64,000 nucleotides of DNA from Gammaproteobacteria bacterium (GTDB lineage: Bacteria > Pseudomonadota > Gammaproteobacteria > Steroidobacterales > Rariloculaceae). A program made the position numbers and the translations under genes. Shown one piece after another: positions 3,777-43,286 of this stretch (within the stretch, counting starts at the first letter, position 1; every line of letters starts with the position of its first letter). The notes under the pieces are model-generated. The model was not told where the DNA came from and searched no databases. It was given only the letters and a program-made list of their open reading frames with translations. The stretch is from the NCBI GenBank assembly GCA_036396795.1, contig DASWKF010000017.1:111191-175190 (forward strand). Reading direction: 5' to 3'.

Positions 3777-5885
3777 ATGCCCGGGAGATTCCGCGAACGA
3801 TACGTCGGACCTGCGCCGATGATCATCTGTTGTCTTGCCGCACTGTCGGTATTGCCGCCACCGGCGAACGCGCGCGTAACGAGGATCGTCGTCGATACCG
3901 TGACGTCGCCAGCTTTCGACGGTCAGTCCTTCGGGGACGCTGGTCAATACGAGACCCTCGAAGGCCGCGCGTATGGCGAGCTCGATCCTACCGACCCGCG
4001 CAATGCAATCATCCAGGACATCGCGCTGGCGGCGCGAAACGCGAACGGCAATGTTGAGTACATGGCGACGTTCTTTCTCGTCAAGCCTGTCGACATGTCC
4101 AAGAGCAGCGGGCTGCTATGGCAATTCGTCCCGAACCGCGGCGGCAGGATCACGCTCTCTGCCGAACGCCGCGCCGACGGCGACATCGGCTTGAGCAGTG
4201 GCTGGCAGGGCGATAACGCCGGTGGCACGGCGCACAATACTCCAGGGCGCGAGCTTGTCGTCGTACCGATTGCCAAAAACCCGGACGGCTCCGCGATTGC
4301 CGGGACGGTCATGGGGCGGATCATCAACGCCGAGGGGCTCGAGTCGAGCCCGATCATCGTGCACTCGAATCCGCTGCCCTACGAGCCGGCGACGCTGGAC
4401 ACGACGCGGGCCCGCCTCACCATTATCGAGTCGGAAACCATCGATGGGCGCACGGGCGTAGCTCGCCAAGTGCCGAGCAGCGACTGGGCTTGGGCACGCT
4501 GCAGCAACGGCAGGGACCCGGTATTCCCTGGGAAGCCCGATCCGACGGAGATCTGCGTCCGCGGCGGCTTCGAGCCGAAACGCGTCTATCAAGTCGTATT
4601 CACCGCCCAAGATCCGCCGGTGCTCGGCATCGGCTTCGCAGCGTTCCGCGATGTTGGATCCTTCTTCAAGTTTGCGCGCGCCGACGACGACGGCACGCCC
4701 AACCCGGTGGCCGACCGAGTGGCTTGGATCGTCGCGCGCGGCAGCTCACAGTCCGGCAACATGCTCAGGCAGTACTTACATCTCGGCTTCAACGAGGACG
4801 AATCGCGGCGGCGCGTACACGACGGCAGCTGGATGTGGATCGCTGGCCGGCGCATCGCGCTTAACTTTCGCTTCGCGATGCCCGATGGCGTGCTGAAGCT
4901 TTACGAGCCGGGTGGCGAAGGCGCCATGTGGTGGGAGCGGTGGCCCGACTACGTTCGAGGGCAACCGACTGGCGGAATACTCGACCGCTGCAAGGCGTCC
5001 AGGACGTGTCCCAAGATCGTGGAGCATTTCGGCTCAGCGGAGATCTGGGCGCTCAAGTTCGGCCCCGGGCTCGTCGGTACAGATCCGAAGGCGGATATCC
5101 CTCTGCCGAGTAACGTGCGTCGATATTACATGCCGAGCACCCGCCACGGCGGCGGCGAGGGCAGCTTCGACGTCGAGCCGCCGGCGCCACCGACCTGCCC
5201 CAGCGAGGCGTACGGCCGCGGCATGTTCGCCGACAACCCGGTGCCGCATACCGAAACCCGCAACGCGATCGAGTTTCATCTGCGCAATTGGGTTGTGCAG
5301 GACGTCGCTCCGCCGCCAAGCCGCTGGCCCCGCCTGCACGGCGAGAACGCACATCTCGTCGCGGCAACCAAGGAAGCCATGGGGTTTCCGGACATACCGG
5401 GCGTGCCTCAAGGAGCGCCGACCGGGTTGATCAGCCCCGTGTTCGATTACGATTTCGGCCCCGACTTCGACCACTTCAACACGACCGGCGTGCCGACGAT
5501 CATTCCGCCGATCATCAAGCAGGTGCTGCCTATGCTTGTCCCGCGGGTGGATGCGGACGGCAACGAGCTCGGCGGTGTCCCGGTGGTCTTGCGAGACGCC
5601 CCTCTCGGCACCTACCTCGGGTGGAATATCACCGCCGAAGGCTTTCATGCGGGCAAGATCTGCAACTATGCCGGCGGCATGATCCCGTTCGCGAGGACAC
5701 AGGCGGAGCGCATCGCGAACGGGGACCCGCGCCTGTCGCTTGAGGAACGCTACGGCACTCACGCGGGGTATGTCGCGGCGGTGCGGCAGGCAACGGCAAA
5801 CGCGGTCGCTCAGGGCTTCCTGCTACCGGCTGACGCGGAGGCGCTGATTGCGCGGGCTGACGCGAGCAACGTCCTCAATCCGTAA
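3777..5885 (+). CDS. Large secreted alpha/beta-hydrolase-domain protein (unknown substrate)
   Basis: ORF 3666-5885 trimmed to the ATG at 3777, preceded by GAGGGGGA. Signal peptide MIICCLAALSVLPPPANA. ARGSSQSGN nucleophile-elbow-like motif. The C-terminal DADGNELGG...GMIPFA...GDPRLSLEERY block is recalled from the 'alpha/beta hydrolase domain' family. Confidence 0.7.
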   Translation: MPGRFRERYVGPAPMIICCLAALSVLPPPANARVTRIVVDTVTSPAFDGQSFGDAGQYETLEGRAYGELDPTDPRNAIIQDIALAARNANGNVEYMATFFLVKPVDMSKSSGLLWQFVPNRGGRITLSAERRADGDIGLSSGWQGDNAGGTAHNTPGRELVVVPIAKNPDGSAIAGTVMGRIINAEGLESSPIIVHSNPLPYEPATLDTTRARLTIIESETIDGRTGVARQVPSSDWAWARCSNGRDPVFPGKPDPTEICVRGGFEPKRVYQVVFTAQDPPVLGIGFAAFRDVGSFFKFARADDDGTPNPVADRVAWIVARGSSQSGNMLRQYLHLGFNEDESRRRVHDGSWMWIAGRRIALNFRFAMPDGVLKLYEPGGEGAMWWERWPDYVRGQPTGGILDRCKASRTCPKIVEHFGSAEIWALKFGPGLVGTDPKADIPLPSNVRRYYMPSTRHGGGEGSFDVEPPAPPTCPSEAYGRGMFADNPVPHTETRNAIEFHLRNWVVQDVAPPPSRWPRLHGENAHLVAATKEAMGFPDIPGVPQGAPTGLISPVFDYDFGPDFDHFNTTGVPTIIPPIIKQVLPMLVPRVDADGNELGGVPVVLRDAPLGTYLGWNITAEGFHAGKICNYAGGMIPFARTQAERIANGDPRLSLEERYGTHAGYVAAVRQATANAVAQGFLLPADAEALIARADASNVLNP

Positions 5886-5895
5886 GGAGATGTGC

Positions 5896-6873
5896 ATGGG
5901 CGCGAAAGCCGTTGCCGCCGCCGTGGCATTCAGTCTGCTAGCCCACTTGCAGATCGTGCTTGCGCAGGGCACGGCGGAGGTCGAAACCATCCTGTACAAG
6001 GCGGCGGACGCGCTCGGAATGCTCCGCACGCCGCGGGAAGTGGACAGAGTGGCGACGATGATTTTCTCCGGTACAGGGACGCTGACGCTCGATAGCGAAG
6101 TCTGCGTCATGGAGCACTATCGGGCCGGCATTCGATACCCCATCCCGAACGCGCGACACACTTTTCCCGTTCCGGGTATGCGCGTCGATTTCAGCTGCGC
6201 GCGGGAAGACGACGAGCAGGAGCGGCACATCCATGTCGTGGCGGGTGATCTCGCCTGGGACGAGACCGAGCCGGGCCTCAACGCGACGCCGGCGCCCGAG
6301 ACGGTCCGCGAACGCCTCTTACAGGTGTGGATCCTTCCGCAGGGGCTGGTCAAAGCCGCCGCCGTGGCCGGTCCACTGGTCACAGCCTCCACCGAAGCTG
6401 GGAACCCAGTGCTGACGTTTCCTCTTCCTGCGCCGCTGGACGACACGGTCGTCAAGGTCACGCTGGATCCAGAGGTATTCCTCTCTCACACGATGCCGAC
6501 GGGTCTGAAGCGCGAGTTCAGCCATCGGATTACGCGGGTCGAGACGCGATTCGACGGCGTCGTAATGGAAGTGACCTATGCGAACTACCAGGACTGGAAT
6601 CATGCCGACTACAAGAGCGACGTGTTGCTGCCGGGCCGCATCGTGCACAGACTCGGCGGGACGACGACGCTCGAGCTTACATTGACCCATAGCAACACCT
6701 ACAACCCCTATGTCGTCATGCCCGTGCCGGAGAACATCCCCCGGGCAGCGTCGGGCGCGGTGGGCCGAAGAAACGGCGGCTCGTGCTATAGTCCGGCCAT
6801 CCTGCGGCTCACGCCCCGGTCTCGGGGGGGGGTACAGCGATGCATCGTAACTTACGGGCAATGGCCATTTTGA
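5896..6873 (+). CDS. Secreted hypothetical protein
   Basis: AAGGAG at 5884-5889 precedes ATG 5890/5896. Signal peptide AVAAAVAFSLLAHLQIVLAQG. The 3' tail is Arg-rich, crosses a G9 tract and overlaps the next gene, so the C-terminus is uncertain. Confidence 0.55.
   Translation: MGAKAVAAAVAFSLLAHLQIVLAQGTAEVETILYKAADALGMLRTPREVDRVATMIFSGTGTLTLDSEVCVMEHYRAGIRYPIPNARHTFPVPGMRVDFSCAREDDEQERHIHVVAGDLAWDETEPGLNATPAPETVRERLLQVWILPQGLVKAAAVAGPLVTASTEAGNPVLTFPLPAPLDDTVVKVTLDPEVFLSHTMPTGLKREFSHRITRVETRFDGVVMEVTYANYQDWNHADYKSDVLLPGRIVHRLGGTTTLELTLTHSNTYNPYVVMPVPENIPRAASGAVGRRNGGSCYSPAILRLTPRSRGGVQRCIVTYGQWPF
6824..6832. repeat. Homopolymeric G9 tract
   Basis: Nine consecutive G read directly at 6824-6832. 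It sits 7 nt upstream of the ATG at 6840 and inside the 3' end of the upstream ORF. Confidence 0.9.
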
Positions 6874-7244
6874 GCCTGACGTGGAGCGCCGGGCCGGTTT
6901 CGGCCCATCACGCGGTCCAAGCCCAGTTCGATCAGGACAACGTCGCCACGATCACCGGTGTCATGACGAGGGTGATGTGGATCAATCCGCACGTACGCTG
7001 GTTCATGGACGTCACGGATGAGAACGGCCATGTGACGACGTGGAATATATCCGGGGCGGCGCCCGGCGGGTTCCGCCGGATCGGAATCAGCGGCCGTGAC
7101 GTGTTCAAAACGGGAGAAACCTACACGGCAACGATTGCACTAGCGAAGGATGGCTCGAGCTTCGGATACATCGTCACGTTTAAGCTGCCGGACGGTCGCC
7201 AGCTCGATCTGTGGCACCAGTACCAGGCTGAAGGGAGCTTCTGA
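6840..7244 (+). CDS. Short secreted HH/NPH-motif protein (DUF6152-like), paralog 1 of 6
   Basis: 134 aa. Signal peptide ends VSA, followed by HHAVQAQFD...WINPH. Same motif set as ORFs at 13321, 14442, 17669, 21088 and 31958. Confidence 0.8.
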   Translation: MHRNLRAMAILSLTWSAGPVSAHHAVQAQFDQDNVATITGVMTRVMWINPHVRWFMDVTDENGHVTTWNISGAAPGGFRRIGISGRDVFKTGETYTATIALAKDGSSFGYIVTFKLPDGRQLDLWHQYQAEGSF

Positions 7245-7322
7245 ACGGGCCGCCTCGACAGTGCGACGTGGCCCCGTGGACGCGATGAGAACACGAGCCC
7301 TCGTTCCAAGGAGAGTCCGACG

Positions 7323-8249
7323 ATGAAGGTGTTTTGCCTTCCCTGCAGCCCGAAGATCGCGGGCATCGCGGCTGCCGCCGTACTCCTATCGGCGCCGGCT
7401 GCCGGCCAGAGCCGGTCTGCGCAAGCGGATCCCGCCGCCGTTCCGACGCCGCGAACCGCGGATGGTAAGCTGGACCTGAACGGCCGGTGGGGAGGCAGCA
7501 GTGGTGGTGGCGTCGGCGTCAAGGTGGTGGAGCCAGATGGAACCGAGATGGATTTCGACACATTCGGAGACTATCAAGGCGCTCTGAGCGCCGGTCAGGT
7601 CAGCCCTTCTGCGCGGATTCTCGGCCGTCAGCCCAACTATCGGCATGGGAACAATGTGTACGCCGAACGCGACGGCGGGATGGACCAGCGATACTACGCA
7701 AACCCGCCGCTCTACAGGCCGGAGTTCTGGGAGCGTGTGCGGTATCTCGACGTGAACGGGAACGTCGAGGATACGACCTTCATATGCATGCCGGCCGGTG
7801 TGCCGCGCATGGGACCGCCCGTTCGAGTCATCCAGTCGGCGACGGACGTGGTCCTTCTATATGACCAACGGAATACCTGGCGTGTGATCCCAACTGATGG
7901 GCGACCCCACGACCCCGTGAACGCGGAAGACCAGACCTTCATGGGAGACTCGATCGGATACTGGGACGGAGATACATTGGTCATCGACGTGGTTGGGTTC
8001 AACGATCTCACCTGGCTCGGCTGGCCGGGGTGGTTCCACTCAAACGAGATGCGAGTGGAAGAACGCTTCACACGTGTCGGCAACACGCTTCACTACGATG
8101 TCACGGTGCATGATCCCTCGGTGCTGTTACAGCCGTGGGTAATGGATACGCGAGTGCTGCAGCTCAATGCGAGCTCGGCGACGTACCTCGAGGATCCGCC
8201 TTGTCTGGACTTCGACTCGACGCACATGGTGACCCGGGAGCGGGGATAG
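7323..8249 (+). CDS. Secreted protein homologous to the C-terminal domain of the long HH/NPH fusions
   Basis: AAGGAG RBS and a signal peptide. FICMPAGVPRM...RVIPTDGRPHDP...GDSIGYWDGDTLVIDVVGFND...PPCLDFD aligns with TCIGRPAP...RTIHMDGRDHPDG...GHSIGWWESETLVIDTTHFAD...FNCDPD of ORF 17669. Confidence 0.75.
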   Translation: MKVFCLPCSPKIAGIAAAAVLLSAPAAGQSRSAQADPAAVPTPRTADGKLDLNGRWGGSSGGGVGVKVVEPDGTEMDFDTFGDYQGALSAGQVSPSARILGRQPNYRHGNNVYAERDGGMDQRYYANPPLYRPEFWERVRYLDVNGNVEDTTFICMPAGVPRMGPPVRVIQSATDVVLLYDQRNTWRVIPTDGRPHDPVNAEDQTFMGDSIGYWDGDTLVIDVVGFNDLTWLGWPGWFHSNEMRVEERFTRVGNTLHYDVTVHDPSVLLQPWVMDTRVLQLNASSATYLEDPPCLDFDSTHMVTRERG

Positions 8250-8297: not shown

Positions 8298-9746
8298 TCA
8301 ATCCTGCGTCACTTCGAAGGCGAAGCGGAAGGCGGGCAAGTCCTCGCCCGGATGGTCCGCGGCATACGTGAGCTGCGGCATGCGGTAGTTGATCGGGATC
8401 TCGTCCGCGCCCTTGTAGATGCCGGGGTAGAGATCGATGAAATGCCAGCCCGGCGCGCCGGTCGCTTGCAGGTAGATCGTCAGATCGCCTTGGCTGTTGA
8501 ACGCGCAGGCGTAACCGATATAGGAATTGTCGTAGACGACGTGCATGATGTTGGAGGTCTCTGTCCAGCCGACGCCTTTCAAATGCACGGTAAACGGCGT
8601 GCCGACGGGTCCACGCGTCACATCCAACGGCGAGGCCGTCGTTTGCACGAAATGCGTGCCGCGCTTCATCGCGCCGGCTGCATCGAGCCACAGCCCGTGC
8701 GTGCCGCCGAGATCGTCGGGCGTCTCGAACTCGAAGGCGACTTGGCCGCCGGCATCCGCGACCGCTTCGGCGACCGGCGTCGAAGACTCGGCCCAGCCGC
8801 CGCCGTCGATGCGGTTGCCGATCACCCGGGTCCAATGCAGCGTATAGCTTTCGCCCGGGCTCAAGCCAGCGGCGCTCACCGTGACCACCTCGCCGACGCC
8901 GGAGAAACGTGGGCTTGAGATCAGCTCGCCGCCGGGTGTTGCAAGACGCACCGCGGTCTGCGCCTGCGCATCGACCGAAGGCGGCAGCACCGGGTCGCCC
9001 GGTGTAACCGTAAAGGTTCTGTAGAAACGCGGCCGGTCGGGCTGCGGGCTCTGCTCCTGGTTGCGATACGGGAAGCCGAACTGGCCGTGCAGGACCTCGA
9101 CGATGTGCTCGCCGACGTGGCCGGTCGCGGGGATCGTGAAGCTCGCGGAGCCTTGTGTCGTCACTGCCGAAGCCCAGCCCGTGAAGTTATTGTCGTAGAG
9201 AACGTTCCAGGATCGCTCCAAATCGCGGTAACCGATGCCTTTGACCTCGACGTTGATCGGCGTCCCCGCGGGGCCACTCTGCGGTGCGATGTCGACCGTC
9301 ATGTCGATCGAATAGGCGGCCTGCGTGAACAGGCGATCACCCCGCTGCAAGACGATGTCGTGAACGAAGCCGAAATCTTCCGGGGTCTCGAAGACGGCTT
9401 CCAAGCGGCCGCCAGCGTCGCTTTTCACCGCCGCCATCTCATACGCGACGGGTATGAATTCGCGGCCGTGATATTCGGATTCGGTGACGTTCCATTTGCC
9501 GTTAACGGTGCGCCAGACAAGTTGGAATTCCTGGTTCGGCGGAAGATCTTCGGCCGTGACCGTAAAGGACGTTCCGATCTCACCGTGCACGGGCGCGACC
9601 CGCATCGTGCCGACATAGCCGCCTTGTGGCTTGCCGACCTCGACTTGCGGCCCAAAAGTGGATGAAGGGCCGGCGAGCGCCGCGGGCGCGCAGAGAAGGG
9701 CGATTGCGAATACGGACCCTGCGAGCGGCCCGGCATGAATTCTCAT
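8298..9746 (-). CDS. Secreted protein built from an internal ~230-aa duplication (Ig-like/beta-sandwich repeats?)
   Basis: 482 aa with signal peptide AIALLCAPAALAG. The two halves align, e.g. TPINVEVKGIGYRDLERSWNVLYDNNFTGWASAVTTQGSASFTIPATG vs TPFTVHLKGVGWTETSNIMHVVYDNSYIGYACAFNSQGDLTIYLQATG. Confidence 0.75.
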   Translation of the reverse strand: MRIHAGPLAGSVFAIALLCAPAALAGPSSTFGPQVEVGKPQGGYVGTMRVAPVHGEIGTSFTVTAEDLPPNQEFQLVWRTVNGKWNVTESEYHGREFIPVAYEMAAVKSDAGGRLEAVFETPEDFGFVHDIVLQRGDRLFTQAAYSIDMTVDIAPQSGPAGTPINVEVKGIGYRDLERSWNVLYDNNFTGWASAVTTQGSASFTIPATGHVGEHIVEVLHGQFGFPYRNQEQSPQPDRPRFYRTFTVTPGDPVLPPSVDAQAQTAVRLATPGGELISSPRFSGVGEVVTVSAAGLSPGESYTLHWTRVIGNRIDGGGWAESSTPVAEAVADAGGQVAFEFETPDDLGGTHGLWLDAAGAMKRGTHFVQTTASPLDVTRGPVGTPFTVHLKGVGWTETSNIMHVVYDNSYIGYACAFNSQGDLTIYLQATGAPGWHFIDLYPGIYKGADEIPINYRMPQLTYAADHPGEDLPAFRFAFEVTQD

Positions 9747-9779: not shown

Positions 9780-10286
9780 TTAGCGGGCAGCCGTCTCCAT
9801 CATGGGCTCGCCTTCGACGATCGCCAGCTGAGATGGCGCGCGCGTGAACGGCTCCCAGGTCACGACGCTGTCGTCCTGCATGGTGACCAGGACCTTATAG
9901 CCCAACGTGCCGGTGGGGTAGCTGGCCGGGACGGTCCAGGAGTTGGCCCAGAAATAGTCGGTCGGCGGATCGCCGTGGGGACCGTAATCCATTGGCACGG
10001 TCTCGCCGCTGCCGAGCTCGACCATGACGCTCTTCACGGCCTCGCCGTCTACGACGGTCCCGTCCGGCCGAAGAACGCGGATGCGCCACGCAATTGCTTC
10101 GCCGCGCTTGTATCGACTCTGCAGGACGCACCAAGGTCCCATCTGTCCGTCGACACGGTGACGCACGAGGTCGCCTTCGAAGAAAAGCTTGCCGGCAGGC
10201 TCGGTGCGACTTTGCGCGAAAGCCGTCCCCGAAAGCCCGGCAAGCGCGATAGACACGGCGATGGCGGAGAGCGTAACGGATCTCAT
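9780..10286 (-). CDS. Small secreted hypothetical protein
   Basis: ORF trimmed to the ATG at 10286, preceded by AAGGGGGA. Signal peptide MRSVTLSAIAVSIALAGLSGTAFA. Confidence 0.65.
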   Translation of the reverse strand: MRSVTLSAIAVSIALAGLSGTAFAQSRTEPAGKLFFEGDLVRHRVDGQMGPWCVLQSRYKRGEAIAWRIRVLRPDGTVVDGEAVKSVMVELGSGETVPMDYGPHGDPPTDYFWANSWTVPASYPTGTLGYKVLVTMQDDSVVTWEPFTRAPSQLAIVEGEPMMETAAR

Positions 10287-10403
10287 GGGAATTCCCCCTT
10301 TATTCTTGACCCAAGCGATGCATGCCCCGGCAAGTCTGACGCTCAGCATACCGGGTTCCCGGCCGGCCCGAAAGATCCGATCTCCGGCCTTGCTGCCGGG
10401 CGT

Positions 10404-11795: not shown

Positions 11796-12008
11796 GTTTT
11801 TTCCTCTTTTTGCTCGATTGTTTCGAGGATCAGGTGGTCCGGGCATTTTACACCTGCAGGCTCAATCGCAGCAGTGCCCCGTTAGCCCGGGCACCGCCCC
11901 AGGGCAGTCAAGGCCGAGCGTGGTCTGCGGCGCTCAATCGGAGTTAACATGGGGTGAAATGATCGACCCGGGAACCCGATGCGGGCCTGGGGCTGGGGGG
12001 AGAAGAAC

Positions 12009-13286
12009 ATGTTCCAGTTGTCGAGACGCCTTCTGATCACCATCCTGCTTTCCGGCGGTCTGCCGGCGTATGCGCAGAGCCAGTTGGCCGCGTTACCTGA
12101 CGGGCCGGGGAAGGAGCTGGTCGAAGCCGCCTGTGTGGCGTGCCATGAGACCGACGTGATCTTCAGCTCGACCGGATACACGCACGAGCAGTGGGGCCGC
12201 CTGATCAGCAAGATGATCGACCTGCCGGATTCACTGAAGGCGAGCATCACGCAATACCTGGCAACGAGCTTTCCGGAGAAATACGATCGCCGCCCGACCC
12301 TGGCACTCGGCAACGCCAAGATTACCTTCCTGGAGTGGACCGTTCCCACGCCTGGGCAGCGGCCGCGGGATCCGGTCATGACGCCGGACGGGATGATCTG
12401 GTGGGCGGGGATGTACGGCAGCTTGATCGGCCGACTCGATCCGAAGAGCGGCGAAATGACGGAGTGGAAGCTCGATCCGCAAGCCAGGCCGCACAGCATT
12501 ATCGACGACGCGCAGGGCAACATCTGGTACACGGGCAACGGCAACGGCACCGTGGGGATGCTCGACCCGGATACGGGTGAGATCACGGTCTACCCAATGC
12601 CCGATCCCGCCGCGCGCGACCCGCATACGCCCATCTTCAGCCGCAACGGCGATTACTGGTTCACCGTCCAGAACAGCAACATGCTCGGCCGCTTGGTCCC
12701 GGATACCGGCGACATCCGGCTGACTCATATGCCGACCGAGAACGCGCGGCCCTATGGCATCAAGGAAGATTCCACGGGCATGATCTGGATCGCCTACCGC
12801 GGCGCCGCGAAGATCGCGCGGGTCGATCCGGATTCGTGGGAAATCGAGGAATTCGAGACACCCGATCCGGATCCGCAATCACACCACGGCAACTACTACA
12901 TTCGCCGGCTCGCGATCGACAGCTACGACACGATTTGGTACGTGGATTCCGGACGCGGCTATCTGGGCCGTCTCGATCCGAGGACCGGCGAGATTGACGA
13001 GTGGCTGACCCCCAGCGGACCCGGCTCGCATCCTTACGCGATCGAGGTCGTCAACGACATCGTTTGGCTCAACGAGTCGGAACAGCGGCCCGACGTGCTG
13101 CTGCGGTTCGACCCGCAAACCGAGCGGTTCCAGAGCTGGCCCATCCCTTCCGGGGTGGGCATCATCCGCAACATGCGGGCGACGCATGAAGGCAACCTGG
13201 TGATTCACCAGAGCAGCAGCAATACCGTAGGCCTCGTCCTTATCGACCGCGAGAGCTCGTGGGTCCCGGGGCCGTATCGGCCCTGA
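12009..13286 (+). CDS. Secreted cytochrome c domain fused to a Vgb/streptogramin-lyase-like beta-propeller
   Basis: Start ATG 12009 after GGGGGAGAAG, with a signal peptide. One CVACH heme-binding motif, then repeated ...G.IW....G...G.LDP.TGE... blades. Confidence 0.8.
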   Translation: MFQLSRRLLITILLSGGLPAYAQSQLAALPDGPGKELVEAACVACHETDVIFSSTGYTHEQWGRLISKMIDLPDSLKASITQYLATSFPEKYDRRPTLALGNAKITFLEWTVPTPGQRPRDPVMTPDGMIWWAGMYGSLIGRLDPKSGEMTEWKLDPQARPHSIIDDAQGNIWYTGNGNGTVGMLDPDTGEITVYPMPDPAARDPHTPIFSRNGDYWFTVQNSNMLGRLVPDTGDIRLTHMPTENARPYGIKEDSTGMIWIAYRGAAKIARVDPDSWEIEEFETPDPDPQSHHGNYYIRRLAIDSYDTIWYVDSGRGYLGRLDPRTGEIDEWLTPSGPGSHPYAIEVVNDIVWLNESEQRPDVLLRFDPQTERFQSWPIPSGVGIIRNMRATHEGNLVIHQSSSNTVGLVLIDRESSWVPGPYRP

Positions 13287-13320: not shown

Positions 13321-14388
13321 ATGAAGGTCGAAAAAGAGACTCTGGTCGCAGAGATCGTCAGCGCAGCGATGCTCCTCGTCTGCTTGTCGCTGTTACCCGC
13401 CGCGACGAGCGCGCACCACTCCAGAGTGGAGTACACCGACGGCGCGATGCACGAGATCGAGGGCGAGGTGGTCAGAGTCGTGTGGAGAAATCCGCACATC
13501 ATGATCACCGTCAGAGCCGTGACGGCCGAGGGAACGGCGGAGGATTGGGTACTGGAAGGCCCCGGGGCGGGGACCGTGCGGCAGGAGGGTCTGATCGACG
13601 GCTATGTTTCGCAAGGCGATCGGGTGAAGGCCTCAGGCCAACGATCCGACCGCCGCGAGCATTGGCTCAGGCTTGCGAACGTGCTCGCCCCGAGCGGAAC
13701 CGAGCTGGTCTTCACCAGCGCGGGGCCGCGATGGTCGTCCGACTTCATCGGCGGCAGCCGAGAGGCGGAGGCCGAGGCCGCCGAGGATGAAACGCCGCCC
13801 GAAGGAATCTTTCGCGTCTGGGTGTGGACGGGCGGCACGCCGTACGAGGTGACGGAAGAGCCCCCGCTGACGCCCGAGGCGATGGCCGCCTACCAAAGCT
13901 ACGATCCGCTCCGGGACGACCCCGTTCTCGAGTGCGAGCTTCCCGGGATGCCGCGGGTCATGACGATTGCAGGCGCTCGTCCGTTCGAGCTCGAGCGGCG
14001 CGGTGAGGATATTCTGATTGTTTCCCAAAACTTCAATCAGACTCGAGTGATCCACCTGAGCAACGGAGCCGTGCCGAGCGACACGGAGGCGACCTCACTG
14101 GGGTATTCACGGGGCCGCTGGGAGGGAGAGACTCTGGTTGTCTCGACGACCCGGATCAGCTACCCGTTCTTCGATATACCGCCGTGGTGGGGTATTCCGC
14201 AGACGGAGGCGATCGAAATCGTCGAGCGCTTTACTCCCGACGGGGACAGGCTCGTGTATGACTTCTGGGCGTATGACCCAACGACATTCACGGCACCGAT
14301 CGACAAGCCCGGTTTCCTGATGTGGACTTGGCAACCGGGGCTGGAGGTCGAGGCGGATCGCTGCGAACCCTATTTCGAGGATCCTTAA
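13321..14388 (+). CDS. Long HH/NPH fusion protein (DUF6152-like N-domain + conserved C-domain), paralog 2 of 6
   Basis: 355 aa. ...PAATSA then HHSRVEY...WRNPH. The C-domain reads ECELPGMPRV...GYSRGRWEGETLVVSTT...DRCEPY. Confidence 0.8.
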   Translation: MKVEKETLVAEIVSAAMLLVCLSLLPAATSAHHSRVEYTDGAMHEIEGEVVRVVWRNPHIMITVRAVTAEGTAEDWVLEGPGAGTVRQEGLIDGYVSQGDRVKASGQRSDRREHWLRLANVLAPSGTELVFTSAGPRWSSDFIGGSREAEAEAAEDETPPEGIFRVWVWTGGTPYEVTEEPPLTPEAMAAYQSYDPLRDDPVLECELPGMPRVMTIAGARPFELERRGEDILIVSQNFNQTRVIHLSNGAVPSDTEATSLGYSRGRWEGETLVVSTTRISYPFFDIPPWWGIPQTEAIEIVERFTPDGDRLVYDFWAYDPTTFTAPIDKPGFLMWTWQPGLEVEADRCEPYFEDP

Positions 14389-14441
14389 GACAGGGCTTTC
14401 ATCCCAGCAGCGGTAAGAATGAGCGTCGCAACGGAGGCGAG

Positions 14442-15446
14442 ATGAGCTGGATTCGTGTTGGTTTCCTGCTCGGGGGCTGGTTCGGAGCCTCATGGGCGGG
14501 AGCACACCATGCGGCTACGGGGCTTTACGACGGGAGCAGCATCGGAGAGGTGGAGGGAGAGATCACTTCTATCTTTTGGCGTAACCCTCATGTGCGGCTT
14601 CGGATCGAGCGCGATGGCGAGGCGGGCCCGGAGGAGTGGGCGGTGGAGTTCGGTTCCGTGAACACGCTGGAGCGCATCGGGGTCAGCTCGGACATGGTGC
14701 AAGTAGGCGATCGCGTAAAGGTCTCCGGAAGGCTGGGGCGAGACGGCTTGAAGGCTCTGTTCGCGGATTCAGTCACGCTGTCCGATGGTAGGGAGCTGCC
14801 ACTGAATGCCAGCGTCCGAAGCCGTTATGGTGTGACGGAGAGGGCCATACGCGATGCGCTGGATACCGATCCCGATCTGCGGGCCGACATCTTTCGAGTC
14901 TGGCTTCCGAACGAGCGTCCGAACACGGGAGCGGGCACCACGCGGTATCCGCTGACGGAGGCGGGCCGCGCCGCGCAAGCGGCATGGAACCCGGCGGACG
15001 ACCCGGCGTTGAGGTGCATACCGCCCGGATTACCGACGGCGATGGACAACCCGTATCCGATTCAATTTCGCGATCAAGGCGACACCATCATCCTGCTCCT
15101 CGAGGAATGGGATGGGGTCCGCGCCATTCACATGAACGGCGTCAGGTCCCCGGAGCAGACCGACTCGCGCATGGGGCATTCCGTCGGGCGCTGGGACGCC
15201 AACACGTTGATCGTCGAGACAACCGACATCGGCTGGCGCTATATCGATGATCTCGGCACGCCGCAAAGTGAGGATGCGGTAATCGTTGAGCGTTTCGCCC
15301 TCGATGCGGACGGAACTCGCTTGGCTTGGGAAGCCCGGATCACGGACGCCGTGAATTTCACAGAGCCCGTGGTCATGGAGGGCGAGTGGATTTGGCTCCC
15401 AGGCCATGAGATCAAGCCCTTCAATTGCACGCTGTCCGCCGAGTGA
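14442..15446 (+). CDS. Long HH/NPH fusion protein, paralog 3 of 6
   Basis: ORF 14322-15446 trimmed to ATG 14442 (GGAGG at 14433-14437). ...ASWAGA then HHAATGLYD...WRNPH. The C-domain reads RCIPPGLPTA...GHSVGRWDANTLIVETT...FNCTL. Confidence 0.8.
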   Translation: MSWIRVGFLLGGWFGASWAGAHHAATGLYDGSSIGEVEGEITSIFWRNPHVRLRIERDGEAGPEEWAVEFGSVNTLERIGVSSDMVQVGDRVKVSGRLGRDGLKALFADSVTLSDGRELPLNASVRSRYGVTERAIRDALDTDPDLRADIFRVWLPNERPNTGAGTTRYPLTEAGRAAQAAWNPADDPALRCIPPGLPTAMDNPYPIQFRDQGDTIILLLEEWDGVRAIHMNGVRSPEQTDSRMGHSVGRWDANTLIVETTDIGWRYIDDLGTPQSEDAVIVERFALDADGTRLAWEARITDAVNFTEPVVMEGEWIWLPGHEIKPFNCTLSAE

Positions 15447-15568
15447 TGGCGTTGCGCGCTTGCTGCTCGCGAAGTGTACGAGTTCGCTTTCATCATCCAG
15501 CCGTTGAAGATTCAGGGAGCGACCGGGTCGACAGTCGCACCCGCCGCAATTTACTGAGGAGAATCCCA

Positions 15569-16540
15569 ATGCGAAATGCCCTATTTGTTGCGGGCCTGGC
15601 CGCGGCGCTCGCGTTGACGCCGATCGTTCACGCCGATGAGGGCCTCGTCGTGGGCACGGAAGCTATCGCAGGCAGCGATATACCGGCGGCCTACCATCTG
15701 GTCCCGACCGTCGACGGGCTGTTCACGGCGATCGGGTTGCGCAAGCCCAGCGGCGATGGGCCGTTTCCGATCGTGTTGTTTGCCTCCGGGAACGGCGGCG
15801 AAGGGCTCGATTGGGTAAAAAATGCGAGCCATAACATGAGCTGGACTCAGGAGCAGTTTCTCGATGCAGGCTACGCCGTGGCCTGGATGCGCTATCGAGC
15901 CGAAGTCGACGTGCCGGAGTACGACGGCAAAGCGCTCGACGATCGCGCCTGGTCGGGACGGCCGCGCTTGAGCCGCGCACCGTTCGAGTACGAGGACGTC
16001 ATCGGCATTTTCGAGTACGTGAAAACGCTTCCCGAGATTCAGGCGGACCGTGTCGCGTACATGGGCATGAGCCATGGCGGCGAGATGCTCATGAAAATCG
16101 CGTCGGTGTATGACGGCTTGCGCGCGGGCATTGCGAGTGAGCCCGCGTCGGCGGGTTTCCTCGCGCGCGGCCCGGCAGATCCGAACGCACCGGAACGCCC
16201 CGAGACCGCGGAGGTCTACACGGCAGACATGCAGGCGCAGGCCGTGCGCGAGCTGCACGCGCGCATCGATCGCAACGTCGCCATGCAGCGCATTGCGCCG
16301 ATCGATATTCCGATTTTCGTGCAGGGGCGGGACCGGGATCACAACCAGGATACGTTTCGGGTCAACTACGAGCTGCTGCAGGAAGCCGGCAAGGAGGTCG
16401 AGTGGAAGACCTACGACCACGACGAGCACGGCTTCGTCTACGTCAAGCGCAATACGGATGGCCGTTACGAGCCGAATGCGGTGCAGCGCGAGGCCGTCGC
16501 GGACTCGATCGCTTTCTTCGATCGGCACATGAAGCGTTGA
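15569..16540 (+). CDS. Secreted alpha/beta hydrolase (dienelactone hydrolase / S9 peptidase-like)
   Basis: ORF trimmed to ATG 15569 (GAGGAG upstream). Signal peptide LAAALALTPIVHA and a GMSHGG nucleophile elbow. Confidence 0.8.
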   Translation: MRNALFVAGLAAALALTPIVHADEGLVVGTEAIAGSDIPAAYHLVPTVDGLFTAIGLRKPSGDGPFPIVLFASGNGGEGLDWVKNASHNMSWTQEQFLDAGYAVAWMRYRAEVDVPEYDGKALDDRAWSGRPRLSRAPFEYEDVIGIFEYVKTLPEIQADRVAYMGMSHGGEMLMKIASVYDGLRAGIASEPASAGFLARGPADPNAPERPETAEVYTADMQAQAVRELHARIDRNVAMQRIAPIDIPIFVQGRDRDHNQDTFRVNYELLQEAGKEVEWKTYDHDEHGFVYVKRNTDGRYEPNAVQREAVADSIAFFDRHMKR

Positions 16541-16620
16541 TCGACGGACGGGGTCGACGTGAGTGTCTTGGCCGTATTCCTTGCCGGAGCGCCGGTTCCA
16601 ACGAAAATAGGGAACAACTG

Positions 16621-17607
16621 ATGAACAAATTTCGCCTCTCGACGTTTGCCGTCTCACTGAGCTTCTCGCTGTCCGTTGCTGCGCCGCTGCAGGCTCAGCA
16701 GCCGCAGAACTACGAAATCACGCAGGTCGCGGACGGTCTCTATCGTGCGGCCACCAGCTCCCACCGCACGGTGTTTCTCGTGACCGAGGAGGGAATCATC
16801 CTGGCGGATCCCATTCACACGGACTTTTCCACTTGGCTGAAGTCCGAGCTGCAGCAGCGCTTCGGTGTCCCGGTCAGACACGTGCTATACAGCCACCATC
16901 ACTGGGATCATGCCTCGGGCGGCGCGGTCTTCGCGGACACGGCGACCTTCGTTGCGCACGAGGACATGGCGGCCGCGCTCGCGGCACCGCTGCCGAGCAA
17001 CGCGACGGTTCTCGATGCGAGCGGCAACGGGGTTCTGGAGCGGGGCGAGGCGAGCGGCGGTTTCGCCGAGAACTTCGACCGGCTGGATACCGATCAGGAC
17101 GGCGGCCTCAGTGGAGCGGAGATCAATGTCGATATCCATCCTCCGGAGCTGCTCTATTCCGACCGCATGACGGTAAGCTTGGGCGGTGAGCGCGTCGAGC
17201 TCATACATCCCGAGCCGGCGCATTCGAGCGATACGACCATTCTGTATTTCCCCGAGCAACGCGCAGGCTTTGCGGTCGATTACATAAACGTCAGGCGTTT
17301 ACCGGGATCCTTCGATCCGTACCCGTTCGACCAGTACGTCAGCGCCGTCGCCACGATGTTTGCGCTCGATATCGATATCGTCGTACCGGGCCATGGGAAC
17401 GTCGGGCAGCGGGAGGACCTCGCCGAATACATGGGCTTCCTGCGAGATCTCCAGACGGAAGTCGCCGCCGCGATCGCGGATGGACAGACGCTGCAACAGG
17501 CTCAGCAATCCGTGGAGCTTGCGGAATATTCGGGCTGGCTGCTTTTCGACGAGCGCAAGGCCAATGTCGTCGCCGGCGCCTATGCCATCTTGAGCGGCAC
17601 GCGCTGA
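16621..17607 (+). CDS. Secreted MBL-fold metallo-hydrolase carrying an inserted EF-hand pair
   Basis: ORF trimmed to ATG 16621. Signal peptide SLSVAAPLQA. HHHWDH zinc motif. Two canonical 12-residue Ca-binding loops, DASGNGVLERGE and DTDQDGGLSGAE (nt 17014-17121). Confidence 0.85.
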   Translation: MNKFRLSTFAVSLSFSLSVAAPLQAQQPQNYEITQVADGLYRAATSSHRTVFLVTEEGIILADPIHTDFSTWLKSELQQRFGVPVRHVLYSHHHWDHASGGAVFADTATFVAHEDMAAALAAPLPSNATVLDASGNGVLERGEASGGFAENFDRLDTDQDGGLSGAEINVDIHPPELLYSDRMTVSLGGERVELIHPEPAHSSDTTILYFPEQRAGFAVDYINVRRLPGSFDPYPFDQYVSAVATMFALDIDIVVPGHGNVGQREDLAEYMGFLRDLQTEVAAAIADGQTLQQAQQSVELAEYSGWLLFDERKANVVAGAYAILSGTR

Positions 17608-17668: not shown

Positions 17669-18676
17669 TTGAGAACGCTCACACGTCTTGCGGCGGCTTG
17701 CTTGGCCGCCACGCCCGTCTGGGGCCACCACAGCGACGCCGGCCTGGACGTCAACTCGATCCTGGCTTTCGAGGGGACGGTCACCGAGTTCGCGTTTCGC
17801 AATCCTCACGTCTACGTCGGTGTCGAGACTGCGGGCCCGAGCGGCGAGCCGGTGACCTGGGCGCTGCAAATGGGTACGGCCAACAATCTCAATCGACAAG
17901 GCTGGGTGCGGGACACGCTCAAGCCCGGCGACCAAGTCGCGGTCCGCGTGCATCCTGCGACGGACGGGCGACCCTACGGCGTGGTGACATCCATCGACAA
18001 GCAAGGCGGGCTGGGTCTGGCGCCGGTCTCCGACGAGCCGCAAGCGCCGGCCCGCGCAACGACCCTGGCGGGCAAATGGCGCGCGGACGTTTCCAAGCTC
18101 GTCGAATACCCGGGCGGTTTCGACGGGTTTTTTCACGCTGAGCTCGAGCTGACCGAGCGGGGCGCCGCCGCCCAGGCCCTATACGACCCGCTTTCCGCGG
18201 AGAACCCCGAGTCGACGTGCATCGGACGACCGGCACCGGCGGCGTTGGTGTCGAGCCGCCTCTATCTGCTCGAGTTCGAGCTCAACGAGGACACCGTCGT
18301 CATCCGAACCGAATATTTCGACGAGGAACGAACGATCCATATGGACGGCCGCGACCATCCGGACGGCAGCGGCCGTTTCGCCAGCGGGCATTCGATCGGC
18401 TGGTGGGAGAGCGAGACGCTCGTGATCGATACCACCCACTTCGCCGATCATCGCTCGCCGTACCAGATCGGTGTGCCCTCAGGACCGCGGAAGCACGTCG
18501 TCGAGCGATACCGACTGATCGAGAACGGCACGAGAATGCTGGCCGAGTTCGTCCTCGAAGATCCGGAATACATTGCCGAGCCCTTGACCCATCAAAGGGA
18601 GCTGATCTACTTGCCCCACGAAACCATGTATCGCTTCAACTGTGACCCGGATTCGACCAGCCGTTTCGTGCGCTGA
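17669..18676 (+). CDS. Long HH/NPH fusion protein, paralog 4 of 6
   Basis: 335 aa, TTG start after a GGGGGG run. ...ATPVWG then HHSDAGLD...FRNPH. The C-domain reads TCIGRPAP...GHSIGWWESETLVIDTT...FNCDPD. Confidence 0.8.
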   Translation: MRTLTRLAAACLAATPVWGHHSDAGLDVNSILAFEGTVTEFAFRNPHVYVGVETAGPSGEPVTWALQMGTANNLNRQGWVRDTLKPGDQVAVRVHPATDGRPYGVVTSIDKQGGLGLAPVSDEPQAPARATTLAGKWRADVSKLVEYPGGFDGFFHAELELTERGAAAQALYDPLSAENPESTCIGRPAPAALVSSRLYLLEFELNEDTVVIRTEYFDEERTIHMDGRDHPDGSGRFASGHSIGWWESETLVIDTTHFADHRSPYQIGVPSGPRKHVVERYRLIENGTRMLAEFVLEDPEYIAEPLTHQRELIYLPHETMYRFNCDPDSTSRFVR

Positions 18677-18691
18677 TCTGAGGTAGTGCCG

Positions 18692-19456
18692 ATGGCGAGA
18701 CCCTTCATCCTCGCGGCCGCGCTGATGCTTGCCGCCGCGACTTCCTCCGCGGCGCTCGCGCAGCAAGCCGCCGCCGACCGCTCGATGTCGTTTTTCGTGA
18801 CCAGCCGGCCCATCGGTGACGGCGGCAATCTCGGCGGGCTTGCCGGCGCGGATGCGCATTGCCAGGCGCTCGCGACCGCGGTCGGTGCCGGCCACAGGAC
18901 CTGGCACGCTTACTTGAGCACGCAGGCCCGCCCCGGTCGACCGGCCGTGAACGCGCGCGACCGCATCGGCACCGGGCCCTGGTACAACGTACGAGGCGAG
19001 ATGATCGCCCGCGACGTCGCGCATCTGCACGGCGACACCCTCGAGCTCGCGCGGCTCGGCAACAACTTGACGAAGCAGTCGGCGCTCACCGAGAAGGGGC
19101 AGATCGTGCCGGGCCTGGAGGATTTTCCGGATCCCCGAGACAACGACTGGGACTACGTCAAGACTACGCCGAATTCCAATCGCCACGAGATCTTGACGGG
19201 CACGCAGCCCGACGGCCGGGCGTATCCCTCGGACCTCGATTACACCTGCGACAATTGGACGAGCAACGAGGACCCGGAAGGGCAGGCGTCCCTGGGAGCG
19301 GCTCCGGCCAAGCCCAACGCGCAGATCGGCTTCACCGACCGCAACGGCGGCGGCAACGGTTCTTGGAACTCCTCGCATGGCACGCGCGGCTGTAGTCAAT
19401 ATGCGCTGCCGAGAACACACGGCATCGGCATGCTCTACTGCTTTGCGGTGAATTGA
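18692..19456 (+). CDS. Secreted endostatin-like / C-type-lectin-fold protein (DUF1554-like), tandem copy 1
   Basis: Signal peptide [41 protein letters not shown] matches collagen XVIII endostatin [29 protein letters not shown]. Four Cys lie in equivalent positions (HC, TCDNW, GCSQ, YCF). The start could also be GTG 18686. Confidence 0.75.
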   Translation: [254 protein letters not shown]

Positions 19457-19463: not shown

Positions 19464-20147
19464 ATGACGAGAACGACATCGTTGCTGACGGCCGCCGCGC
19501 TTCTCACGCTCAGCAGCGTTTTTACGGCGATCGCACAACAGCGAGCGCAGGCGCCGATGACGTTCTTCGTTACCAGCGAGCCGATCGGCGACGGCGGCAA
19601 TCTCGGCGGGCTCGAAGGCGCCGATGCGCATTGCCAGGCGCTCGCGACCGCCGCCGGCGCGGGCGATCATACCTGGCGCGCGTATCTGAGCACGCAGGCG
19701 CGCCCCGGGATGCCCGCGGTGAATGCCCGCGACCGCATCGGCGACGGCCCGTGGTACGCTGCCGTGCGCAGGCTCGACCGTCCGATCATCAAGTCCGAGC
19801 TTCACGGCGACACGCTCATCGAAGCGCAGCGCGGCAGCAACATGTTCAAGCGGTACACGCTCACCGAGAAGGGCGAGCTCGTCAACGGTATCGGCGATCC
19901 GCTGCCGATGCGCCACGATATCCTCACCGGCTCGCAGACGGACGGGCGCGCCTTCACCGCCGCCGCCGACCATACATGCAACAACTGGACCAGCAACGCC
20001 GAAGGCTCGGCGCAGGTCGGCCATTCCGATCGCATCGGCAACGGCAACACCTCGTGGAATTCCTCGCACGCGACCGACGGCTGCGGTCAGGCGGACCTCG
20101 AGGGCTGGGGCGGCGTCGGCTTGTTCTATTGCTTCGCCGTGGATTGA
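19464..20147 (+). CDS. Secreted endostatin-like / C-type-lectin-fold protein, tandem copy 2
   Basis: 227 aa paralog of the upstream gene. It shares a 29-nt identical stretch (18851-18879 = 19623-19651) and the four Cys. Confidence 0.75.
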   Translation: [227 protein letters not shown]

Positions 20148-21087: not shown

Positions 21088-22107
21088 ATGAGGAATCAGG
21101 CAGCCTTCGCCGCGGCGTCTTTCACGCTCGCCTGCGCGGCTTTCGGTCATCACAGCGACGTCGGCCTGCAGATGGATGCGGTGACGACCTTCGAGGGGAT
21201 CGTCACCGAATACACGCTGCGCAATCCTCACAGCTATTTCACCGTCGCAACCACGGACGAAAACGCCGAATCGGTCACCTGGACCGTGCAAATGGGCTCG
21301 GCGATCTCGGTTTCGCGCAGAGGATGGACGCGCGACACGCTTGCACTCAACGACCGGGTGATCGTCGGCGTGCATGCGGCGCGCGACGGGCGGCCGTACG
21401 GGCTGCTCGCAACGCTCGAGAAGGAAGGTGTGCCTATCTCCTATGCGCGGTTGCCGAACCCGGTGACGGTGAGCACGACGAGCCTCGAAGGCCGGTGGAT
21501 CATCGATCGGGCGAGCCTCCCCGAGGACTACCCCGGAGGCCTCGACCAGCTCACGCTTCAAGATCTTGCCTTGACCGAGAAAGGCCGGGCCGCGCTGGCG
21601 GCGTTCAGTCAGAACTCCGAGGAGAATCCGGAGCTCGCCTGCATATCGAAGCCGACGCCGGGAGGAATCGTCTATACGGACATTTACCCGATCGAGATCG
21701 AGTTCGTGCAGGGCAACGAGATCATCATGATCCGCAGCCAGTACTTCGATCAGGAGCGCACCGTGTACATGGACGGTCGACCGCATCCCGACCTCGACCA
21801 GCGTTGGCACGAAGGCCATTCGATCGGCTGGTGGGAAGGCGAGGTGCTGATCGTGGATACGCGGAATTTTGCGGACAACCGATCGCCCTACCAGAACGGC
21901 ATTCCCTCGGGGGCGCAAAAGCACGTCGTCGAGCGTTACGAGCTGCAGCCGAGCGGCACACACATGACGGTCGAGTTCACGCTCGAGGATCCTGAATATC
22001 TCGTCGGATCGATGACTCACAGGAGAGACTTGGTCTATTCGCCGCAGCTGGAGATGACGCCATTCAATTGCGATCTCGAAGCGACGCGACGCTACCTGCC
22101 TCGATAG
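21088..22107 (+). CDS. Long HH/NPH fusion protein, paralog 5 of 6
   Basis: 339 aa, RBS GAGGGGGA. ...ACAAFG then HHSDVGLQ...LRNPH. Roughly half the residues are identical to ORF 17669 by eye. FNCDLE lies near the C-terminus. Confidence 0.8.
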   Translation: MRNQAAFAAASFTLACAAFGHHSDVGLQMDAVTTFEGIVTEYTLRNPHSYFTVATTDENAESVTWTVQMGSAISVSRRGWTRDTLALNDRVIVGVHAARDGRPYGLLATLEKEGVPISYARLPNPVTVSTTSLEGRWIIDRASLPEDYPGGLDQLTLQDLALTEKGRAALAAFSQNSEENPELACISKPTPGGIVYTDIYPIEIEFVQGNEIIMIRSQYFDQERTVYMDGRPHPDLDQRWHEGHSIGWWEGEVLIVDTRNFADNRSPYQNGIPSGAQKHVVERYELQPSGTHMTVEFTLEDPEYLVGSMTHRRDLVYSPQLEMTPFNCDLEATRRYLPR

Positions 22108-23113: not shown

Positions 23114-23533
23114 GTGTTCCACAAGCCCAGAGACACATCAGTGGGGAATTCCGTTCTTGCGACGAAAGTCCGATTCGCCGCGAGCGCACTATCCTCGGAT
23201 GAGGATCTCACCATCGAGGGCATCGTCGAGGGCAGCATCGCCAATCGGAGTCACCAGGTGACCATCGGCAGAAGCGGCCGGGTAAAGGCCGACGTGCATG
23301 CGAGAATCATCGTCGTGGAGGGGACCATCGAGGGAGATTTGTTGGGCGAGGAAGCCGTGCACATGCGGCGCACCGCGCGAGTCGTCGGCAATGTGACCTC
23401 GCCTCGGATCACGCTCGAGGACGGCGCGACGGTGAAAGGCAACATCAGGACCTCCGGGCGGTCGCCTGCCGCGCCACGTGCCGCGGCGGAGCAAGCCCCG
23501 CCGCCGCCCGCCGGGAGCATGCGAGCTCAATAG
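23114..23533 (+). CDS. Bactofilin (polymer-forming cytoskeletal protein)
   Basis: Repetitive beta-helix pattern IEGIVEGSI...VKADVHARIIVVEGTIEGDLLG...VVGNVTSPRITLEDGATVKGNI. GTG 23114 is preferred because AGGAG lies at 23102-23106. Confidence 0.75.
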   Translation: MFHKPRDTSVGNSVLATKVRFAASALSSDEDLTIEGIVEGSIANRSHQVTIGRSGRVKADVHARIIVVEGTIEGDLLGEEAVHMRRTARVVGNVTSPRITLEDGATVKGNIRTSGRSPAAPRAAAEQAPPPPAGSMRAQ

Positions 23534-23534
23534 G

Positions 23535-31957: not shown

Positions 31958-32332
31958 ATGTCGCCCATGAAGCTCGCAGCCGGCGTCGCCGCCTGCGGTT
32001 TGGCGCTGCCGTTTGCAGCCGACGCGCATCATTCGCACGGCAACTACCGGCTCCACGAATACACCTATTTGACGGGAACGGTCAAAGAGGTGTTGTGGAT
32101 CAATCCGCACACCTGGATTCATCTCGAGGTCACCAACGAGAACGGCGAGGCCACGGATTGGGCTCTCGAGGGCGGGGGCATCGCCGCGCTCACGCGGCGG
32201 GGCTGGCAAGAGGGCGACGTCAGGCCCGGTGACACGATCTCGGTGCGCTGCCATCAGCTTCGCGACGGTGCGCAAGGTTGTCTGCTCGGCTATGTGACTC
32301 CCGAGGGCGGAGAGGAGAAGGAATGGGATTGA
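31958..32332 (+). CDS. Short secreted HH/NPH-motif protein (DUF6152-like), paralog 6 of 6
   Basis: 124 aa. ...LPFAADA then HHSHGNYR...WINPH. Starts 11 nt after the amidohydrolase stop. Confidence 0.8.
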   Translation: MSPMKLAAGVAACGLALPFAADAHHSHGNYRLHEYTYLTGTVKEVLWINPHTWIHLEVTNENGEATDWALEGGGIAALTRRGWQEGDVRPGDTISVRCHQLRDGAQGCLLGYVTPEGGEEKEWD

Positions 32333-43272: not shown

Positions 43273-43286
43273 CGTATTCGTTCCGA

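Follow-up and report, generated by a model that had tools for sequence, protein, structure and literature searches.

The window analysed here is a stretch of 64,000 nucleotides from a gammaproteobacterium of the Rariloculaceae (contig DASWKF010000017.1, positions 111,191 to 175,190 of the forward strand), and it encodes one pair of exported protein modules, here called N and C, in two arrangements. In the split arrangement, a short N-module and a longer C-module are the products of separate, adjacent genes on the plus strand (6840..7244 and 7323..8249). In the fused arrangement, both modules lie in a single chain, and this form occurs four times on the same strand: fusion 1 (13321..14388, 355 amino acids (aa)), fusion 2 (14442..15446, 334 aa), fusion 3 (17669..18676, 335 aa), and fusion 4 (21088..22107, 339 aa). 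All four were recognized as DUF6152 plus C-module by Pfam, BLASTP, and hidden Markov model (HMM) matches, and fusion 2 was also modelled with AlphaFold2. We describe how the two arrangements are related and consider whether their products, with that of a third gene, X, make up one unit.

The N-module gene encodes a stand-alone DUF6152 protein of 134 aa with a signal peptide; an alternative start lies at 6861 and is the one in the JGI gene call (127 aa). It carries the two-part signature of its family. The first part is a His pair directly after VSA (His23-His24, 6906..6911), which reads as the predicted mature N-terminus, and the second is an Asn-Pro-His motif (N49-P50-H51, hereafter NPH; 6984..6992) that the strand positions of the fusion model would place in the loop between strands 1 and 2 of an oligonucleotide/oligosaccharide-binding (OB) fold. 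The C-module gene follows 78 bp downstream on the same strand, so that the order is N then C. It has its own ribosome-binding site (AAGGAG, 7308..7313, 9 nt upstream of the ATG) and encodes an exported protein of 308 aa, predicted to consist of a β-barrel core resembling fatty-acid-binding proteins (FABPs) and an N-terminal insertion subdomain of ~60 aa. Its two conserved Cys residues are Cys155 (7785..7787), within the motif C-x-P-x-G-x-P, and Cys294 (8202..8204), in the C-terminal tail. Both products begin with signal-peptide-like N-termini: MHRNLRAMAILSLTWSAGPVSA followed by HH in the N-module and MKVFCLPCSPKIAGIAAAAVLLSAPAAG in the C-module. A first-pass annotation of the window had described ORF 6840-7244 as the N-module alone and 7323-8249 as a separate gene with its own signal peptide; both ORFs exist as it described them.

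Gene X (5896..6873, plus strand) is the third member of the cassette. Its product is an exported protein of 325 aa, in a family whose members have ~290 aa, with a signal peptide and two invariant Cys residues. The last ~34 codons (6772-6873, plus strand) extend beyond the end of the ~290-aa homologues and run 34 nt into the DUF6152 gene. This Arg-rich tail looks like the product of reading on past a lost ancestral stop codon, and a 97 %-identical metagenome protein (P0390) has the same tail. No terminator-like or promoter-like sites were seen between the three genes. X, N, and C (5896-8249) probably form one co-transcribed cassette, and their products would then be three separately exported modules of one extracytoplasmic set.

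Sequence relationships of the split and fused modules

The product of 6840-7244 belongs to DUF6152 (PF19649; E 1.8e-17, 63.6 bits), matching positions 5-96 of the 98-position model. The N-termini of the four fusions belong to the same family, and all five domains score above its gathering threshold of 27 bits (E 1.8e-17 to 1.5e-24, 52.6-86.4 bits). In BLASTP, the stand-alone protein is 27-30 % identical to the N-termini of the fusions. DUF6152 proteins are described in Pfam as typically stand-alone, with ~110-130 aa; the Pfam model covers only the ~100-aa N-module, and the partners C and X and the fused architectures have no model or description there. Conservation was examined in 115 DUF6152 domains, of which 64 are stand-alone and 9 fused at genome loci, the other 42 being taken from the fusion alignment. 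In 114 of them, HH comes directly after a small-x-small motif with A, G, S, or T at position -1; a Trp in strand β3 is likewise found in 114, and NPH is nearly invariant (N in 113, P and H in all 115). Judged from these sequences, the mature DUF6152 protein would begin with His-His once the signal peptide is removed.

The C-module has no such family assignment. No Pfam family matches the 7323-8249 product at E <= 1, and none matches the C-halves of the fusions; NCBIfam gave only a chance-level match for the former and no informative family for either; and sequence and profile searches of the PDB with the split family and the fusion family returned nothing meaningful. The relationship between the split C-module and the fusion C-halves is detectable by several other means. 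BLASTP of the 7323-8249 product against each of the four fusions, in a six-sequence database, gave 24-27 % identity and 37-43.5 bits. An HMM of the fusion C-domain matches 7323-8249 at 2e-14, and an HMM of the split family matches all four fusions at 1e-8 to 6e-11. Finally, hhalign comparison of the split-family profile (44 sequences of the 7323 family, A2) with the fusion-family profile (42 sequences, A3) gave a probability of 98.8 % and an E value of 1.3e-16 over 128 columns, aligning residues 148-279 of the 7323 product with residues 185-317 of fusion 2. As a control, the split-family profile was compared in the same way with the unrelated X family, for which the probability was 0.7 %. The homology of the 7323 product to the fusion C-halves that had been read from the letters in the first-pass annotation is thereby upheld, and the split-versus-fused observation is confirmed at the profile-profile level.

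A region-limited alignment shows colinearity of the whole mature 7323 protein with the part of the fusions that follows the OB-fold, taken in full; the modules are therefore split at the border between the two domains. The first strand is shared by the 7323 product and the fusions as L-x-G-[RK]-W (S-R-Y in fusion 2), and an insertion of ~60 aa at residues 57-117 is peculiar to the 7323 type when compared with the fusion C-halves. Taken along the fused chain, N aligns with residues ~20-120 and C with residues ~150 to the end; the two segments are consecutive and do not overlap, which is the pattern of a Rosetta-stone relationship.

The short motifs on which the first-pass annotation relied are all present where it had quoted them. 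They include the sequences around the first Cys (FICMPAGVPRM, ECELPGMPRV, RCIPPGLPTA, TCIGRPAPAA, and ACISKPTPGG), the core elements R-x-I and G-x-S-x-G-x-W-[ED]-x-x-[TV]-L-[VI], and the sequences around the tail Cys (PPCLDFD, DRCEPY, FNCTL, FNCDPD, and FNCDLE). Its statement that the split pair equals the fusions holds for architecture and fails for orthology, given that 24-27 % identity is the level of old paralogues. On sequence grounds, the split pair is thus anciently paralogous to the four fusions and did not arise by a recent fission.

The family to which these C-modules belong is large. A profile search of 1.84 billion representatives retrieved 11,857 of them (50 % identity clusters) at E <= 1e-3 and 5,815 at E <= 1e-10. 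Across 231 aligned C-modules, >94 % of the sequences retain the first Cys, and the same holds for an Arg, a Glu, and an Asp, with exceptions that are mostly alignment gaps; for the last three residues, the figure is >97 %. The first Cys was found in 218 of the 231, and the other 13 are made up of 11 alignment gaps and 2 Glu. Because tail length varies, hmmalign placed gaps at the second Cys in 97 of the 231 sequences, and the tail Cys was therefore counted directly. In all 216 evaluable C-modules, the first Cys is kept, no Cys lies between the two positions, and a tail Cys is present, with a median spacing of 28 residues from the DP aspartate that precedes it; there is exactly one tail Cys in 213 and there are 3-5 in the remaining three. 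Conservation of the Cys pair, which had been noticed within the window, thus extends far beyond it. Since the protein is exported, a disulfide is the simplest reading of the pair, and the two residues probably form one that joins the lid-to-barrel loop to the C-terminal tail.

The C-module also occurs in other combinations. Tandem C-C fusions in one chain were seen in three proteins (P0265, P0294, and P0388) and at locus L081 (3608-5287, plus strand). At locus L009, a 654-aa product (5631-7592, plus strand) consists of a C-module followed by a weak match to the metallo-β-lactamase (MBL) fold (E 4e-4, below the Pfam cutoff).

Recurrence of the split layout and the third module

Two ORFs that are adjacent on one strand, in N-then-C order and only 78 bp apart, with four intact fusions nearby, might be the pseudogene fragments of an N-C fusion broken by a nonsense mutation, a frameshift, or an assembly error. 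The relatives of the two ORFs speak strongly against this. The C product, only 24-27 % identical to the fusions, is 77-79 % identical to stand-alone orthologues that also have 308 aa, and every orthologue at 51-79 % identity is a stand-alone protein of ~300 aa; overall, >3,177 clusters match it. An identical N/C pair was found on 23 metagenome contigs. Near-identical contigs in JGI metagenomes, together with closest named relatives that fall in Ca. Rariloculaceae, make a gammaproteobacterium of sediment or soil, related to that group, the probable source of the window. A neighbourhood scan, limited to one genome per species, covered 80 diverse loci, mostly from Acidobacteriota (Bryobacterales, Vicinamibacterales, Terriglobia) with some from Gammaproteobacteria, including Ca. 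Rariloculaceae; at 49 of them, in genomes from different phyla, a DUF6152 ORF and a C ORF, both stand-alone, are neighbours on one strand. Since the orthologues stand alone, the split layout recurs, and the C gene comes with a ribosome-binding site and a signal-peptide-like N-terminus of its own, the broken-fusion explanation is rejected; we would give it practically no weight.

Layouts other than the simple pair were also recorded. Several tandem C genes per N gene are common (NCC, CCN, CNC, and NCCCC, besides plain NC), DUF6152 is present and non-adjacent in 3 of the 80 loci, and in 1 of the 80 a fusion stands next to C. The three-gene order of the window, X(290)-DUF6152(140)-C(307), was found in a 4.39-Mb gammaproteobacterial contig and again in an Acidobacteria genome; on another contig, the order is X-C-DUF6152. 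A 5.9-Mb contig carries the cassette and, on the other strand, a second split set. The family of fused N-C proteins comprises at least 1,273 clusters.

Gene X recurs with the pair. The X product is 72 %, 54 %, and 47 % identical to the products of genes that flank the DUF6152/C pair at three loci (L001, L003, and L004, respectively). Its family numbers 282 hits, all of ~290 aa and all annotated 'hypothetical', and no match to X was found in Pfam or the PDB. The idea that X is a distant homologue of C was ruled out by the hhalign probability of 0.7 % given above. X and C are joined in a second type of fusion, with chains of ~550-600 aa confirmed by both the X and the C HMMs (P0241, P0263, P0306, P0309, P0329, P0342, P0361, and P0368), and one further example (P0118) came from a separate earlier search; eight of the nine were found among the best 150 C-module profile matches. 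In both of the two cases examined, a stand-alone DUF6152 gene follows the X-C fusion gene. With N as its fusion partner in some lineages and X in others, C appears as the hub of the set.

Predicted folds and the case for a single unit

The N part of the fusion 2 model has strands at residues 29-45, 51-59, and 62-70, a helix at 73-78, and strands at 91-99 and 105-112. Foldseek comparison of this part with the PDB returned the anticodon-binding domain of LysRS, the M. tuberculosis SSB (target TM 0.57), and Stn1/Ten1. On the basis of the model, DUF6152 is predicted to be an OB-fold of five strands with a helix between strands 3 and 4.

For the C-module, the model of the 7323-8249 product (mean predicted local distance difference test (pLDDT) 75, predicted TM score (pTM) 0.70) gave CRBP1, SAHS, and FABP as its best Foldseek matches in the PDB (E 3.7e-3 to 5e-2, target TM 0.43-0.50). 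The C part of fusion 2 matched CRABP2 (target TM 0.59), as well as FABPs, CRBP1, and tardigrade SAHS. In the fusion 2 model, a strand A is followed by helices and then by about nine strands, as in the FABP topology, and Foldseek probabilities for the FABP/CRBP/CRABP/SAHS group are ~1.0. Members of that group, the intracellular lipid-binding proteins, are β-barrels of 10 strands with a helix-turn-helix lid. Sequence does not place the C-module in this group: identities are 6-18 %, and there is no Pfam hit that would make it a Lipocalin or FABP family member. Export, two invariant Cys residues, the ~60-aa insertion of the 7323 type, and the presence of partner modules also set it apart. The models thus suggest an FABP-like β-barrel with a helical lid, a resemblance at the level of fold only. 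The near-invariant Arg, Glu, and Asp of the family are located in or just after the predicted barrel strands.

The model of fusion 2 as a whole is compact, with a pLDDT of 85.4 and a pTM of 0.82. The inter-domain segment (residues 113-185) has pLDDT values of 83-96 over most of its length and of 76 from residue 181. This compact model fits N and C modules that are packed against each other. Given that N and C are fused in the window, and that X and C are fused elsewhere with N separate, N and, in this subfamily, X would most likely dock physically on C. We consider it highly probable that N and C, with X, form one physical and functional unit.

A different view would be that N and C are co-located and co-regulated secreted proteins that act independently, for example as two separate binding proteins or as stress proteins, that their fusions are accidental, and that they share no stable interface. 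In its favour, 27 of the 80 C loci have no DUF6152 gene within ~4 kb, and stand-alone DUF6152 genes without a C neighbour exist, so that adjacency of N and C is not obligatory; Pfam's picture of the typical DUF6152 protein as a stand-alone one points the same way. One such orphan is the sixth DUF6152 gene of the window (~31958-32332, plus strand; signal peptide ...PFAADA/HHSHGNY), among whose neighbours there is no C-module; the adjacent ORF 32323-32991 was considered as a cryptic C-module and ruled out, as it matches neither the C HMM, nor the X HMM, nor Pfam. Independent action is nevertheless hard to reconcile with two independent fusion types that both involve C, with the size of the N-C fusion family, with the high pTM of the fusion model and its confidently predicted segment between the domains, and with an adjacency that is kept across phyla while the surrounding genes vary. 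We therefore judge independent action to be unlikely and favour the single unit.

Proposed mechanism, gene context, and significance

How such a unit might work is suggested by analogy with known proteins. Histidine-brace copper sites, as in LPMOs, CopC, and YcnI, are marked by a conserved His that becomes the first residue once the signal peptide has been cleaved. CusF, a periplasmic OB-fold metallochaperone for Cu(I)/Ag(I), uses His and a capping Trp on its β2-β3 face, and FABP-type barrels bind small hydrophobic or amphipathic ligands. In the mechanism that we propose, the three His residues of N would hold Cu, Zn, or Ni in a three-His or histidine-brace-like site on the canonical OB ligand face, and the barrel of C would hold a small, probably amphipathic ligand. 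The N/C pair would then serve in the periplasm for binding or catalysis that depends on the metal. Since some loci have one N gene with several tandem C paralogues, N could serve as the common subunit and C as the specificity subunit. This picture of a metal-binding OB module that docks on a ligand-binding barrel is put forward tentatively, as less likely than not. It draws on the N-terminal His pair together with a third His and a Trp, which the topology suggests lie on the OB ligand face; on the precedents of histidine-brace proteins and CusF; on the conserved Arg, Glu, and Asp of an FABP-like cavity protein; and on the pairing of one N gene with several C genes.

The comparison with these precedents shows differences as well as similarities. 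DUF6152 resembles CusF and the bacterial OB-fold (BOF) proteins YgiW/YdeI in being a small exported OB-fold protein, and, beside the His and Trp of CusF, it has a near-invariant His in the β1-β2 loop and a Trp in β3. However, DUF6152 has no Pfam match to either family at E <= 1, it lacks a Met-x-Met motif or a conserved Met pair such as the His/Met/Met/Trp ligand set of CusF includes, the ligands proposed here being three His or a His-brace, and CusF is not among the top 50 Foldseek hits of the fusion 2 model. With the histidine-brace proteins (LPMOs of families AA9/AA10, CopC, YcnI), DUF6152 would share a predicted His1 and a distant conserved His; those proteins have β-sandwich or cupredoxin-like folds in place of an OB-fold, and two consecutive N-terminal His residues, as in DUF6152, are unusual. 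A parallel for the arrangement of the genes is provided by ZinT and ZnuA, which are separate in some bacteria and fused in streptococcal AdcA. The logic is the same, in that a calycin-type barrel and its partner are either split or fused, although the parallel is an analogy only: there is no homology (no Pfam ZinT hit), and an OB-fold takes the place of the cluster-9 solute-binding protein as partner.

Read as a whole, the best explanation of the data is a single unit that works by the proposed metal and ligand mechanism, to which we assign a probability of roughly 0.6, a figure that blends the two parts. Several observations weigh against it, beginning with the C-only loci and orphan DUF6152 genes described above. 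Confidence around the His-His pair is low in the fusion 2 model (pLDDT <50), because the modelled chain included the signal peptide. The Foldseek matches are weak (E 1e-4 to 1e-2, target TM 0.45-0.59). A literature search found no publications on DUF6152 or PF19649, or on a histidine brace with an OB-fold. Finally, a Pfam census of 143 flanking genes from ~78 loci revealed no consistent functional theme; it included six TonB-receptor-like barrels and 3-4 each of pyrroloquinoline quinone (PQQ) dehydrogenases, cytochromes c, MBL-fold proteins, and molybdenum (Mo)-oxidoreductases.

The same census bears on a variant that overlaps our model, in which the system is a periplasmic relay for a metal or metallophore and no enzyme is involved: C would capture a metal-chelate brought in through a TonB-dependent receptor, and the His-His/His site of N would accept the metal, by analogy with ZinT and ZnuA. 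The His-rich N-terminus of the N-module and the calycin-type barrel that Foldseek indicates for C are in keeping with such a role, and TonB-dependent receptor genes, the commonest flanking family, lie within a few kb at four loci (L001, L004, L005, and L085). The link to receptors is weak, however, at 6 of 143 flanking genes in receptor-rich genomes; moreover, Pfam matched neither ZinT nor any other metal-binding family, and no transporter gene is consistently linked. A relay of this kind seems to us improbable. We would be equally reserved about the strongest form of the proposed mechanism, in which DUF6152 would represent a new class of extracytoplasmic metal centre, with a histidine-brace-like or three-His site on an OB-fold in place of a β-sandwich, and active only with the FABP-like barrel and sometimes X.

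The surroundings of the cassette vary. At two loci on unrelated contigs, a gene for a CytoC_RC-type (tetrahaem-like) cytochrome directly follows the X/N/C cassette (L003:2310-3431 and L089:1975-3102), and in the former, MtrB/PioB and multihaem cytochrome genes are next in line. CytoC_RC was rejected as a general partner, as it is absent after the cassette in L006, L008, and the window. In the window itself, two genes on the minus strand, convergent to the cassette, encode secreted proteins of 482 and 189 aa without a Pfam match (8298-9746 and 9780-10349); the larger looks internally repeated. Directly upstream of fusion 1, the gene at 11979-13286 (plus strand) encodes a Vgb-lyase-like β-propeller joined in one chain to CVACH, a motif of c-type cytochromes. 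For fusion 2, the ORF begins at 14322, 40 codons before the likely true start at 14442 (MSWIRVG...); this upstream extension (14322-14441, plus strand) overlaps the end of fusion 1, and the JGI call of fusion 2 likewise has 334 aa. Interleaved with the fusions are genes for MBL-fold hydrolases (16402-17607 and 23478-24659) and an S9/DLH hydrolase (15425-16540). Between fusions 3 and 4, tandem genes at 18686-19456 and 19464-20147 (plus strand) encode paralogous secreted proteins with a conserved Cys pattern and weak or borderline matches to DUF1554 (PF07588). Further away, on the minus strand, a cluster at 42484-46489 appears from its translations to encode signalling proteins (FHA-like, PP2C-type phosphatase-like, and a large Ser/Thr kinase-like membrane protein) and is unrelated to the N and C modules.

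DUF6152 is already named, although uncharacterised, the predicted folds are of known kinds, and the reasoning from domain fusion and conserved neighbourhood is standard. Neither the C and X modules nor their linkage nor the two types of fusion appear to have been described in the resources searched: no Pfam, NCBIfam, PDB, or literature record was found for the large C family (~11,900 clusters) or for the smaller X family (282). Repeated adjacency, the two fusion combinations N-C and X-C, and the loci with one N gene and many C genes turn these unannotated families into one testable system. If there is no metal centre, the system would be a clean, ordinary case of domain fission and fusion among secreted proteins. 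If the metal centre is real, the OB-fold scaffold would be added to the short list of N-terminal-His metal sites, and thousands of proteins of soil and sediment bacteria would gain an annotation. Were DUF6152 to prove a metal-centre class of its own, it would be part of an undescribed periplasmic metalloenzyme or metal relay, abundant in Acidobacteriota and sediment Gammaproteobacteria, with interchangeable C subunits.

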